This document shows, in pieces, positions 13,411 through 41,937 of a DNA stretch of 58,238 nucleotides. The DNA comes from Candidatus Didemnitutus sp. (GTDB lineage Bacteria > Bacteroidota > Ignavibacteria > Kapaibacteriales > Kapaibacteriaceae). Position 1 is the stretch's first letter. Each line of letters opens with the position of its first letter. A program made the position numbers and the translations under genes. Where the stretch lies: NCBI GenBank assembly GCA_035299365.1, contig DATGWS010000231.1, forward strand, positions 1 to 58,238. Direction: 5' to 3'. The notes beneath the pieces are model-generated. The model worked only from the letters and a program-made list of their open reading frames with translations, was not told the DNA's origin and searched no databases.

Positions 13411-13436
13411 TGTTCGCTATTCGCTATTCGCTATTC
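13411..13436 (-). repeat. heptamer tandem repeat (GAAYAGY)x~3.7, starting at the stop codon of the upstream gene
   Basis: The minus strand reads TGAATAGCGAATAGCGAATAGCGAACAGTG. The TGA of the Omp85-like gene (13435-13437) is part of the first unit. Same unit family as 40201-40270. Confidence 0.8.
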
Positions 13437-36424: not shown

Positions 36425-36464
36425 AGTTACTCAGTTGCGGAGTTACGGGGTTACGGGGTTACGT
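36425..36464 (+). repeat. octamer tandem repeat (RGTTRCKN)x5 just after the rhodanese stop
   Basis: AGTTACTC AGTTGCGG AGTTACGG GGTTACGG GGTTACGT. The GTTAC core is the reverse complement of the GTAAC units at 40282-40309. Confidence 0.75.
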
Positions 36465-36557
36465 TGTGGTTCTGCTGCATCCTGAACTAGCAAAGCCAGT
36501 AGGAATCTATCCATTCCTGAAATTCGCTGAATACCTCCTACCGTACACGCACACCCA

Positions 36558-36614
36558 CGTCTTTTCGTCATCCCGTCACTACGTCATTTCGTCATCGTCA
36601 TTGTCATTGTCATG
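36558..36614 (+). repeat. degenerate (C)GTCAY 6-9-nt tandem array running into the dps start codon
   Basis: CGTCTTTT CGTCATCC CGTCACTA CGTCATTT CGTCAT CGTCATT GTCATT GTCATG, where the last unit contains ATG 36612. Confidence 0.7.
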
Positions 36615-39512: not shown

Positions 39513-39585
39513 GTAGCGTCCTTTTGTGCGTATATATCTACGTGTCGTGAGGAGGACAAAACGTGACGCGGTACCTTTGCAGACT

Positions 39586-40200
39586 ATGGCAGCAGCAAAA
39601 AAGCAGAAGTGGTACGTTGTGTGGTCCGGACATCATCCGGGCATCTACACAAAGTGGGACGAGGCAAAGAAGCAGATCCACGGTGTGGCCGGAGCCAAAT
39701 ACAAGTCCTATGACACGCTCTCGGAAGCCAAAGAAGCATTCGAGACTGGTCCAGTGCGCCTTGTAACACAACGTGCAGCAGCAACCGTTCGCAACTGCCT
39801 CCTCCCATCATTCGCCGTGGATGCCGCATGCGACATGACAACTGGCGTTATGGAATACCGGGGCGTTGATATTGAAACCGGTGCAGAAATCTTCCGCATG
39901 GGACCGTACCAAGACTCGTCGAATAACCTCGGCGAATTCCTCGCCATTGTTCATTGTTTGGCCTTCTGCAAACAACGTGGACTCACCGAGCCGATCTACA
40001 CTGACTCCCGCACCGCCCTCGCATGGATCCGTCACCGCAAAGCAAAAACCACCGTTGAACGTACGGCCGGCAATGCCCCCGTCTTCGAACTCATTACTCG
40101 CGCCGAACAATGGTTGGAGAAGAACACGTATCCCAATCGTATTCTGAAATGGGAAACAAAGGAATGGGGCGAAAACCCTGCGGACTTTGGAAGGAAGTGA
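39586..40200 (+). CDS. rnhA: RNase H type 1 with N-terminal hybrid-binding (viroplasmin-like) domain
   Basis: Trimmed to ATG 39586. HBD 'KWYVVWSGHHPGIYTKWDEAKKQIHGVAGAKYKSYDTLSEAKEAF'. RNase H core with acidic residues in 'AVDAACD', 'NNLGEFLAIVH' and 'IYTDSRTAL'. Confidence 0.75.
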   Translation: MAAAKKQKWYVVWSGHHPGIYTKWDEAKKQIHGVAGAKYKSYDTLSEAKEAFETGPVRLVTQRAAATVRNCLLPSFAVDAACDMTTGVMEYRGVDIETGAEIFRMGPYQDSSNNLGEFLAIVHCLAFCKQRGLTEPIYTDSRTALAWIRHRKAKTTVERTAGNAPVFELITRAEQWLEKNTYPNRILKWETKEWGENPADFGRK

Positions 40201-40270
40201 ACAGCGAATAGTGAATAGTGAATAGCGAACAGCGAACAGTGAACAGTGAACAGCGAACAGTGAACAGTGA
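40201..40270 (+). repeat. heptamer tandem repeat (AYAGYGA)x10 starting right after, and in register with, the RNase H stop codon
   Basis: ACAGCGA ATAGTGA ATAGTGA ATAGCGA ACAGCGA ACAGTGA ACAGTGA ACAGCGA ACAGTGA ACAGTGA. The stop TGA (40198-40200) continues the GTGAACA register. Confidence 0.9.
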
Positions 40271-40281
40271 ATGGTAGATTT

Positions 40282-40309
40282 GTAACTAGTAACTAGTAAC
40301 CAGTAACTA
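40282..40309 (+). repeat. second heptamer tandem repeat (GTAACYA)x4 upstream of dut
   Basis: GTAACTA GTAACTA GTAACCA GTAACTA, ending 13 nt before the dut start at 40323. Confidence 0.85.
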
Positions 40310-40322
40310 CTCTTGGTTCTTT

Positions 40323-40769
40323 GTGAACATCAACCTCCAACATCTTCCTCATGCGGCTGGTTTGCCCCTTCCCACCTTTGCTTCGGAGGGTGCTGCGGGC
40401 ATGGATGTGTGTGCTGCTGTGTCCGAACCGATGGTCCTAGGTGCTGGGAAGGTGGTGTTGGTACCAACAGGAGTGTGCGTTGCAATACCACGTGGATATG
40501 AAATGCAGGTTCGATCGCGCAGTGGCCTTGCAGCGAAGCAGGGTGTGTTTGCCTTGAATTCTCCGGGCACCATCGATAGTGATTATCGTGGCGAGGTAAA
40601 GGTGATTCTCGCCAATTTCTCAAATGAGGATGTGATCATTGAACGCGGAACACGGATTGCGCAGCTTGTGGTAGCCCGCCATGAGACAGTAACGTGGAAT
40701 GTTGTTGAAACCCTCGATGACACCGTTCGAGGTGAAGGCGGATTTGGTAGCACAGGAGTCCATCCATGA
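40323..40769 (+). CDS. dut: dUTP diphosphatase
   Basis: GTG start. 'GAAGMDV', 'RSRSGLAAKQG', 'GTIDSDYRGE', 'RGEGGFGSTG'. Confidence 0.9.
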   Translation: MNINLQHLPHAAGLPLPTFASEGAAGMDVCAAVSEPMVLGAGKVVLVPTGVCVAIPRGYEMQVRSRSGLAAKQGVFALNSPGTIDSDYRGEVKVILANFSNEDVIIERGTRIAQLVVARHETVTWNVVETLDDTVRGEGGFGSTGVHP

Positions 40770-41209
40770 CAGTTTCAATCGGATCTGACCACGCTGGCTT
40801 TATCTACAAAGAAGCACTCAAGCAAATGCTTGTTGATGACGGATATGTTGTTCTGGACGTAGGAACGTATAGCGCGGAATCTGTGGACTACCCGGACTAT
40901 GGTGCTGCTGCTGCACATCTTGTTCGTGATAACCATGCAGACTTTGGCGTGGTTATCTGTGGCTCGGGTATAGGGATCTCCATCGCTGCTAACAAGGTGC
41001 GCGGCATTCGTGCTGCCAATTGTACCAGCGTGGAGTTGGCCCAACTGGCACGTATGCACAACGATGCAAATGTGATCGCCATTGGACAACGTATTGTGTC
41101 TATCGAACTCGCACAAGAGATGGTTCGTGTGTTCTTGACCACAGAGTTTGAAGGGGGCAGGCATCAACGTCGGGTTGAAAAGATCGACGAGCTTGGAGAC
41201 TTACAATGA
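40766..41209 (+). CDS. rpiB: ribose-5-phosphate isomerase B
   Basis: 'IGSDHAGF' and 'GVVICGSGIGISIAANKVRGIRAA'. ATGA overlaps on both sides. Confidence 0.85.
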   Translation: MTVSIGSDHAGFIYKEALKQMLVDDGYVVLDVGTYSAESVDYPDYGAAAAHLVRDNHADFGVVICGSGIGISIAANKVRGIRAANCTSVELAQLARMHNDANVIAIGQRIVSIELAQEMVRVFLTTEFEGGRHQRRVEKIDELGDLQ

Positions 41210-41937
41210 GCGTTGATGTAATGGTGCTCTCTGCACATCCGGATGATGCAGAACTCTCGTGCAGCGGAACAGTAAAGAAACTTACAAACGAGGGTAGATC
41301 TGTTGTTTTTGTGGAGTGTACGCGCGGCGAACTGGGTACACGTGGTTCTGCCGAACTGCGAGAACAAGAAGCAACAGAGGCAGCACGTATCCTTGGGGTT
41401 AACGATCGTGAGTGTCTCGACATGCCTGATGGTCACATCATGCATACAAATGAGAACATTCATGCAGTGATCCGTTCTCTCAGAACGTGGAAGCCAAATC
41501 TCCTCCTCATTCCACCGCCGTTTGAACGTCATCCCGACCACGAAGCAGTGCACAAACTCGCACGTGCTGCCGCGTTTCTTGCGGGCCTTACCAAGATCTC
41601 AACGCAGGCAAATGGAAGCGAGCAGCATCCTCATCGTCCAACAAGAATGTTGTGCTTTCAACAGCAGTATGATTTTCCCCGCGAGCCCGATGTCTATGTG
41701 GACATTTCGGATACGTTTGATGCAAAGATGGCTTCCATCAAGGCCTTCTCTTCGCAATTCTATCTTCCGGATCTGTACACGAGCGATGAGCCTACTACCT
41801 TTATCTCTCGTCCGGGATTCCTCGAAGAAATCGAAGCGCGTGCCCTCTATCTTGGCAGTCGCATCGGCGTGCGATACGCCGAGGCCTACCTTGCCATAGA
41901 GCCCCTTGCCGTATCGTCCTTGAGCGTGTTTCTCTGA
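41206..41937 (+). CDS. bshB1: bacillithiol biosynthesis deacetylase BshB1 (PIG-L family)
   Basis: 'LSAHPDDAELSCSGT', 'TRGELGTRGSAELREQEATEAARILGV', 'ERHPDHEAV', 'SQF'. Confidence 0.75.
   Translation: MSVDVMVLSAHPDDAELSCSGTVKKLTNEGRSVVFVECTRGELGTRGSAELREQEATEAARILGVNDRECLDMPDGHIMHTNENIHAVIRSLRTWKPNLLLIPPPFERHPDHEAVHKLARAAAFLAGLTKISTQANGSEQHPHRPTRMLCFQQQYDFPREPDVYVDISDTFDAKMASIKAFSSQFYLPDLYTSDEPTTFISRPGFLEEIEARALYLGSRIGVRYAEAYLAIEPLAVSSLSVFL

Follow-up and report, generated by a model that had tools for sequence, protein, structure and literature searches.

The spacer between the RNase H1 gene (rnhA) and the dUTPase gene (dut) of a Candidatus Didemnitutus genome is filled by two adjacent arrays of heptanucleotide repeats. 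Our analysis suggests that these arrays are probably solo copies of two dispersed heptanucleotide families, of the class known as short tandemly repeated repetitive sequences (STRRs) or long simple sequence repeats (SSRs), that slip in whole units and are maintained by a family-specific process centred on cassettes with a PF05635 gene, without a dedicated role at this junction. The window analysed in this study is the whole stretch of 58,238 nucleotides of contig DATGWS010000231.1, which is contig C231 of the source metagenome-assembled genome, G000 (3.1 Mb, 377 contigs, 51.5% G+C); its congeners are also given G numbers. The named genomes most similar to G000 are Candidatus Kapaibacterium / Ignavibacteria MAGs. 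New in this study are the constancy of the repeat units across a near-saturated divergence, the presence of a cognate PF05635 gene for each family, the co-occurrence of gene and arms in unrelated contexts, and the flipping of the cassettes.

Structure of the rnhA-dut spacer

The junction has the following features.

39526..40200, plus strand: RNase H1 gene (N-terminal hybrid-binding domain and RNase H), ending AAG TGA
40198..40200, plus strand: TGA stop of the RNase H1 gene, which fills the YGA place of the repeat unit ("docked"), read from the sequence
40201..40270, plus strand: array 1, ten AYAGYGA units of family AAYAGNG, read from the sequence and found by Tandem Repeats Finder (TRF)
40271..40281, plus strand: linker ATGGTAGATTT, 11 nt, identical in G005 and G031
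40282..40309, plus strand: array 2, four GTAACYA units of family AACTNGT, read from the sequence and found by TRF
40310..40322, plus strand: unique 13-nt tail CTCTTGGTTCTTT 5' of dut, read from the sequence
40323..40769, plus strand: dut (dUTPase), GTG start at 40323, dUTPase match 6e-32
40766..41937, plus strand: rpiB and a PIG-L-family deacetylase gene, with 4-nt overlaps each, in one operon with dut

The initial annotation of this DNA had given the positions and unit counts of both arrays, the linker and the 13 nt before dut, and on re-reading these proved exact to the base; array 1 is also in register with the stop codon, as had been claimed, since TGA 40198-40200 sits at the YGA place of the unit. 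TRF reports array 1 at 40196-40271 (period 7, 10.9 copies, score 103) and array 2 at 40282-40309 (period 7, 4.0 copies, score 49), the units of both being contiguous head to tail with 88-90% matches. The units of array 1 are, in order, ACAGCGA, ATAGTGA, ATAGTGA, ATAGCGA, ACAGCGA, ACAGTGA, ACAGTGA, ACAGCGA, ACAGTGA and ACAGTGA, and those of array 2 are GTAACTA, GTAACTA, GTAACCA and GTAACTA. Units 5-7 of array 1 are identical to units 8-10, forming a 21-nt higher-order duplication, which indicates that steps of several units occur. The linker ATGGTAGATTT is similar to about 1.4 units of the TAGATTGG/TAGAATGG octamer family found on contigs C177 and C245.

The RNase H1 product matches PF01693 (2e-19) and, weakly, RNase_H; its C-terminal Lys codon and stop are kept in congeners, so the protein is not altered by the array. 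The downstream products match RpiB (3e-58) and the PIG-L deacetylases (5.5e-29). The arrays had been described as free of hairpin potential, and the predicted fold of the spacer RNA agrees with this (z = +1.47, with 188 of 200 shuffles folding at least as well). We found no promoter- or terminator-like site and no Rfam match in the spacer, no Shine-Dalgarno sequence in the 13-nt tail at 40310-40322, and neither a PF05635 gene nor an inverted partner array in the spacer. A composite resembling a miniature inverted-repeat transposable element was rejected, as neither the junction of array 1, linker and array 2 nor the tail recurs in the genome and the two families adjoin only here. By its composition, the sense RNA of array 1, which is A/G-rich and C-poor, would be a poor Rho utilization (rut) site for the loading of Rho.

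Heptamer and octamer arrays across the genome

Arrays were collected genome-wide by TRF at a score of 40 or more. G000 has 142 arrays of period 7 and 203 of period 8, 345 in total, whereas period 6 is represented by 4 arrays and period 9 by 25. They are built from 16 heptamer and 39 octamer canonical units and are dominated by about eight families. The heptamer families include AACTAGT, which is the same as GTAACTA (36 arrays), AACAGCG (29), AATAGCG (29) and AACAGAG (14), while the octamer families are built on GTAAC, ATGACG and CTAGCAC cores, with TAACTGAG octamers forming 10 arrays. Counted as families, AAYAGNG, to which array 1 belongs, has 72 arrays with 562 units, and AACTNGT, to which array 2 belongs, has 36 TRF arrays. 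The repeat is therefore neither absent elsewhere in the genome nor invariant in copy number, two of the findings that the initial annotation had named as evidence against its proposals.

About 90% of the arrays are intergenic by rough gene calls based on open reading frames (ORFs). Convergent spacers are the richest (85 arrays in 212), followed by tandem (133 in 632) and divergent ones (38 in 195), and the median spacer length is 129 nt with arrays versus 16 nt without. Contig ends hold 57 of the 345 arrays; many of the breaks that divide the assembly into 377 contigs are probably due to the repeats, so that the array counts are underestimates. The two rnhA-dut arrays are therefore ordinary members of a genome-wide population.

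Among the congeners the unit families show a patchy, lineage-specific distribution. Three-unit matches of AAYAGYG number 322 in G031, 271 in G005, 128 in G000, 48 in G036 and 19 in G034, and there are none in 19 of 29 congeners. GTAACNN is plentiful in G008, G005, G031, G000, G003 and G033 and sporadic in the class as a whole (32 of 201 genomes). TRF sampling of congeners poor in arrays gave none in 140 kb of G002 and 0.7 per 100 kb in G016; G014 is rich in arrays (8.3 per 100 kb) with different units, ACGAGTG and ACCCAGT.

PF05635 genes and their cognate repeat families

There is one cognate PF05635 gene per major repeat family in the genus. In G000, six of the eight PF05635 genes have a 7- or 8-mer array within 400 nt, compared with 9.6% expected, and four of them, on C91, C73, C142 and C39, are enclosed by inverted arrays of a single family.

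C91:2755-3108: PF05635 gene, 117 aa, Pfam match 3e-17, PDB 2RLD match 1.3e-13; arms AATAGCG and complement, the family of array 1
C73:1267-1665: PF05635 gene, 132 aa; arms TAGTTAC/GTAACTA, the family of array 2
C142: PF05635 gene; arms GTAACTGC octamers
C39: PF05635 gene; arms CTAGAGTG octamers
C328 and C43: PF05635 genes; ATGACG-type octamers on one side

If the arms were drawn by abundance, the chance that six genes would have six different families is about 0.003, as a rough estimate. The 81 PF05635 genes of 21 congeners comprise 46 bracketed by arrays on both sides, 18 with an array on one side and 17 with none, and among the bracketed genes the arms are inverted in 45 and direct in none. 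In the RNA of the C91 cassette the arms pair around the ORF (z = -5.9).

In a maximum-likelihood tree, 73 proteins cluster according to the family of their arms. Support is 98-100% for the AAYAGNG, GTAACTA and CTAGCAC clades; the grouping is weaker or not resolved for AGTGACS and ACTAGGG. Members of these clades lie in several unrelated flanking contexts (three for AAYAGNG, two for CTAGCAC, six for AGTGACS and two for ACTAGGG) and keep their arms in them, so that the association is not merely due to the shared ancestry of one locus. The copy number of PF05635 in the genus ranges from 9 down to 0, with none in eight genomes. The six genomes of clade A are six of the seven with most AAYAGYG matches, and the closer relatives G008 and G016 have neither a clade-A gene nor an abundance of AAYAGYG. 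Sampling found 4 arrays in 511 kb of PF05635-free genomes versus 49 in 736 kb of PF05635-bearing ones (Spearman 0.58, with kinship ignored).

Where the cassettes are syntenic, the gene can be inverted relative to its flanks between genomes. The clade A cassette is flipped in G031 versus G000 and G005, that of clade B in G000 and G005 versus G031 and G008, and that of clade C in G000 versus G005 and G031. These inversions indicate that recombination between the inverted arrays flips the enclosed segment, even in very close relatives. In G000 the regions C39:12350-13050, C73:1050-1800 and C91:2500-3300 look like array-driven invertible segments, the first being flipped even between the close relatives G000 and G005.

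From these observations, the small PF05635 protein is predicted to recognise its own repeat unit, which we consider the most likely basis of the process that maintains the families. If so, the cognate PF05635 protein is a candidate binder for the arrays, one of the roles suggested in the initial annotation being that of an array of protein- or RNA-binding sites. A more specific form of this proposal, which we put forward tentatively and with more doubt than confidence, is that each family is specified by its own PF05635 paralogue recognising the unit, that the gene travels as an invertible cassette, and that solo arrays, including the rnhA-dut pair, are its targets or offspring. Another derivation of the pair, as the relic of an excised PF05635 cassette, is not supported; its arrays come from two families and point the same way, which is the case in none of the 45 cassettes.

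Several points weigh against a process centred on PF05635. The correlation between PF05635 and array density ignores phylogeny. G011 has six PF05635 genes and no arrays in 60 kb, and G016 has two such genes at the low density given above. G018 is without a PF05635 gene, yet it has a few arrays, and with its 7 AAYAGYG matches it outranks G006. A separate PF05635 clade of 13-16 genes is never flanked by arrays. Moreover, unit conservation could in principle come from rapid inter-locus exchange rather than from selection, and the keeping of both arrays and the 11-nt linker over a deep divergence could reflect some local function. The gene calls used throughout are crude ORF calls, which makes distances to 5' ends unreliable.

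Members of the array-free PF05635 clade are about 140-165 aa long; the clade includes C44:5783-6091 and C286:1860-2156 of G000, with 11-14 orthologues in congeners, and could provide an internal control for ideas about binding or propagation.

Known mobile elements were also considered as a source of the arrays. The tetranucleotide TTAC is the target of IS608. An origin through HUH or IS200-IS605 elements was rejected, as PF01797 (Y1 HUH transposase) occurs in 28 of 29 genomes, array-bearing or not. Array synthesis by a reverse transcriptase (RT), as in diversity-generating retroelements (DGRs), was rejected as well: RT (PF00078) occurs in only 3 of 29 genomes and is absent from the array-rich G031, G008, G003 and G014, and the variable positions of the units are C, not A. 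The RT of G000 consists of two adjacent RT-like matches at C93:4441-6235 (PF00078, E ~1e-12), and RT is found elsewhere in only two congeners.

Constraint on the unit sequence

In the AAYAGNG family five of the seven positions are at least 97% invariant. The variable positions of AACAGCG are position 3 (C 337, T 221) and position 6 (C 318, A 181, T 56). That only these two C positions vary across the family accounts for the alternation of C and T within array 1, which had been called patterned rather than random decay; the duplication of units 5-7 as units 8-10 adds to the pattern. The variation is strand-asymmetric, with the two cytosines of the unit changing (C to T, C to A) and the guanines constant, and the C-to-T changes are those creating TAG and TGA.

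Between G000 and G031 the identity at fourfold sites is 42% in dut and 53% in rnhA, close to saturation. Despite this, the two genomes share the unit consensus of both arrays and the identical 11-nt linker. Under neutral concerted evolution, the consensus of an array is expected to drift at the rate of point mutation. The comparison suggests that the units are constrained, or that they are continually re-copied from a conserved source.

These results bear on a simpler explanation, which is that the arrays are plain neutral microsatellites. Polymerase slippage biased to 7-8 nt in unconstrained DNA, together with a deletion bias toward stops, would produce them with no sequence-specific factor, and the proximity of PF05635 genes would be incidental. 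Such an explanation accommodates the whole-unit changes in copy number, the array-free junction of most congeners, and the avoidance of 5' regions and filling of convergent spacers by arrays; a heptamer excess ascribed to polymerase slippage has also been discussed (PMC4692102). We nevertheless think it unlikely, because it does not explain why there are few unit families per genome, why five of seven positions are invariant over 72 dispersed arrays, or why the units have stayed the same in genomes whose fourfold sites have almost saturated. It also leaves without explanation the single bracketed PF05635 gene per major family with arms always inverted, the joint occurrence of gene and arm family in unrelated contexts, and the near lack of arrays in PF05635-free congeners.

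History of the junction among congeners

The rnhA and dut genes are neighbours in all 20 congeners examined. In 11 of the 16 first examined, the junction is 4-44 nt long and without repeats (e.g. TAATCatg), and three further congeners have junctions of 9-30 nt with no arrays. Elsewhere, the junction of G008 has TAACTCG x7.7, in which the stop codon TAA forms the first three bases of the first unit and is followed by CTCGTAA units, that of G016 has one TAACTCG, and that of G003 has several other heptamers. The layout of G000, namely TGA, array 1, the identical linker, array 2 and the tail, recurs in G005 (RNase H 98% identical) and in G031 (88%), the latter retaining 9 of the 13 tail bases. The arrays are thus a derived insertion into an ancestrally short junction and are not needed by the operon.

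The unit counts in G000, G005 and G031 are 10, 8 and 12 for array 1 and 4, 5 and 13 for array 2, and the spacer measures 122, 115 and 199 nt, respectively. Over the alignment of about 24 kb between the window and G005, net length changes are confined to arrays, and at the other orthologous array sites of G000 and G005, with adjacent arrays taken as one site, five of six differ in length. The suggestion of a slippage-prone spacer is therefore supported, as copy number differs by whole units among the three genomes.

It had further been suggested that the spacer tunes the expression of dut, rpiB and the deacetylase gene (annotated as bshB1), and an extended version of this idea would make it a locus-specific, length-tunable regulator, similar to a contingency locus or to a translational spacer. 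In favour of such a regulator, only 13 nt lie between array 2 and the start of dut, the spacer is 122, 115 or 199 nt long across genomes, and G000 and G031 have both kept the arrays and the linker of their common ancestor; an influence of heptamers close to start codons on translation or on the use of promoters has been suggested for Beggiatoaceae and Nostoc (PMC4679880; bioRxiv 10.1101/2022.06.06.494920). However, the same families occur at more than 100 unrelated gene ends, and a repeat-free junction of 4-44 nt suffices in most relatives. Neither a promoter- or terminator-like site nor structure is seen in the spacer, and genome-wide none of 23 GTAACNN heptamer arrays lies within 10 nt of a 5' end (by crude start calls). 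We therefore do not uphold the tuning of this operon and give a locus-specific regulator a very small chance; there is no evidence of a dut-specific role for the rnhA-dut arrays.

Docking of arrays on stop codons

The enrichment of arrays immediately at stop codons, which the initial annotation had suggested looking for, is a genome-wide regularity. A distance of 3 nt or less from an array is found for 110 of 303 gene 3' ends versus 22 of 209 gene 5' ends. Relative to uniform placement in the same spacers, 3' ends within -6..+3 nt of an array number 100 versus 49.8 expected, and 5' ends 19 versus 28.3 expected. About a third of the arrays sit on a stop codon, and nearly always the docked stop is the stop triplet of the first unit itself, as in TGA-AYAGNG, gaaTAG-CGAATAG, TAG-TTAC, TAA-CTNG and TAA-TGTGC. 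Docking is not an artefact of ORFs running into arrays, which predicts that the stop should fall equally in units 1, 2 and 3, whereas the observed offsets are almost all -6..+3, with only 6 at -8 or lower.

The major families all carry a stop triplet on the gene-facing strand. Beside stops, AAYAGNG is oriented sense in 29 cases and antisense in 5, while GTAACNN docks both ways (19 and 8) because each of its strands carries a stop. We read docking as a limit effect, in which an array reaches a gene end, or a codon or two inside it, only where the unit on that strand supplies a stop. Some convergent spacers consist of a single array running from stop to stop (TGA-ATAGCGA...GAAT-TCA; e.g. the C75:622 region of G000), while in others two inverted arrays are present, which would fold into long hairpins.

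Docking might be taken to mean that the arrays form a multi-frame stop trap, selected to halt read-through or frameshifted ribosomes at gene ends, and as a sequence property of this one spacer the multi-frame stops noted earlier are real. A period of 7 or 8 rotates a unit-borne stop through the three frames, as has been noted for TAACTGA (PMC4679880); a stop triplet is present on the gene-facing strand in every major family, and docking on stops is twice the expectation. As a property of the family, however, the proposal fails, since 264 of the 562 AAYAGNG-family units (AACAGCG and AACAGAG) are stop-free on both strands. Arrays of 10-20 units are far longer than a trap requires, the same arrays lie upstream of genes and serve as inverted cassette arms, and both docking and orientation are explained by which of the two strands can run into the end of a gene and still leave the protein no longer. 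Docking is thus not good evidence for a selected stop trap, to which we assign scarcely any probability.

Relation to known repeats and possible mechanism

Heptamer repeats are a described but unexplained bacterial class, and the arrays studied here belong to it. Mazel in 1990 and Mrazek in 2007 reportedly described the STRR heptanucleotides of heterocystous cyanobacteria and the heptamer-rich long SSRs of prokaryotes. Like these, the arrays here consist of 7-nt units joined head to tail, are intergenic, dispersed in many copies and drawn from few families per genome, and have a lineage-restricted distribution and variable copy number; four features by which a repeat can be placed in this class were all found, namely tandem 7-nt units in at least three copies, dispersed arrays of few families, whole-unit steps and patchy families. 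They differ in their units (AAYAGNG and GTAACNN), in octamer families that are as abundant, in the strong docking on stops and in the one-to-one link to PF05635 cassettes, which was found in no paper searched. In the contingency SSRs of phase variation, the repeat lies within an ORF or between promoter elements, and changes in unit number switch expression; the repeats of the spacer sit between stop and start codons within an operon, with no promoter-like site found there.

Another close case is TAACTGA, a direct repeat known from marine Beggiatoaceae and also from some Cyanobacteria and five Bacteroidetes (MacGregor 2015, PMC4679880), for which forward-strand stops and 7-nt indels between strains have been described (PMC4679880). 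Both kinds of repeat are intergenic heptamers of patchy distribution with forward-strand stops and 7-nt indels, and in both other heptamers are mixed in the same spacers. Most TAACTGA sets of BOGUAY comprise 2-6 copies, placed in forward orientation immediately before start codons (PMC4679880); in contrast, arrays here run to 3-35 copies and are sited mainly at stop codons or beyond them, and array 2 ends 13 nt before dut rather than a few nt upstream of the start. Two positions distinguish array 2 (TAACYAG) from TAACTGA; in the G000 genome TRF found TAACTGAG octamers but no TAACTGA heptamer array. The heptameric repeats GGGAATC of Xanthomonas and GGGGAYT of Nostoc (Rehm et al. 2015, PMC4692102) consist of G-rich units that form quadruplexes, unlike the units here, which are A-rich and without G-tracts. 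Effects of heptamer repeats on the expression of nearby genes have been proposed in Nostoc (bioRxiv 10.1101/2022.06.06.494920).

Other classes fit less well. The spacer is not of the REP/BIME/REPIN kind (repetitive extragenic palindromes, bacterial interspersed mosaic elements and REP doublets forming hairpins), being without structure (z +1.47), and PF01797 is present in 28 of 29 genomes regardless of arrays. Nor is it a CRISPR (clustered regularly interspaced short palindromic repeats) array, in which repeats of 23-50 nt alternate with unique spacers, as its 7-nt units are contiguous and without spacers. The PF05635 family of four-helix-bundle proteins, named '23S rRNA IVS protein' after intervening sequences (IVSs), is homologous to Avd of DGRs (PMC10053308). 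The C91 and C73 cassettes share with the 23S rRNA IVSs, which have an S23p/PF05635 ORF in a long stem, the layout of an ORF in a loop between inverted arms, while the cassettes lie between protein genes and their arms are heptamer or octamer arrays. In contrast to DGRs, which combine Avd with RT, the cassettes are without an accompanying RT, and the A positions of the units are invariant while C positions vary. For the two families of the spacer, this IVS-like stem-loop cassette is seen only at the cognate loci C91 and C73 and not at the rnhA-dut junction.

Taken as a mechanism, our favoured account of solo copies kept up by PF05635-centred maintenance runs as follows. Both arrays were added to an ancestrally short rnhA-dut junction and then kept in the lineage of G000, G005 and G031. 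Whole units are gained and lost, also three at once, in the manner expected of replication slippage or unequal exchange. The start of array 1 falls on the stop codon since the YGA of its unit can itself act as a stop, and an array can advance to the end of a gene, or a little way inside it, only with the strand that carries stops. The families would be propagated and kept uniform by a family-specific process with PF05635 cassettes at its centre. As a by-product, 122 nt of unstructured, stop-rich RNA separates cistrons that nearly abut in relatives, and this separation would uncouple the translation of dut from that of rnhA and render the spacer length hypervariable.

Taken alone, the spacer adds a further case to the heptamer repeats of bacteria, with a stop register that is general in this genome. 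The genus, however, offers a natural experiment with array-rich and array-free congeners, in which array content tracks PF05635 gene content. It makes testable what creates and maintains heptamer repeats and what role four-helix-bundle proteins like those of IVSs and Avd play outside retroelements. If the reading in which each PF05635 paralogue specifies its own family is true, it would provide a molecular partner for the 30-year-old puzzle of STRR and heptamer repeats and a function for the orphan '23S rRNA intervening-sequence protein' family. Inverted arrays that flip the enclosed segment between close relatives also shape genome structure.

Other repeats and features in the window

Two further repeat loci were found in the window.

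13413..13436, minus strand: second AAYAGNG array, docked sense on the TGA of a minus-strand gene (TRF)
36425..36613, plus strand: octamer (AGTTACGG x4.9) and 6-8-nt (CGTCAY) arrays in another spacer (TRF)

The alignment between the window and G005 breaks or shifts in length at 36425..36613. In addition, BLASTN found no counterpart of the segment 45899-48352 of the window, some 2.4 kb, in contig C155 of G005, which is collinear elsewhere. The flanks of the segment align to this contig at 87-94% identity, and the segment may have been inserted or replaced.

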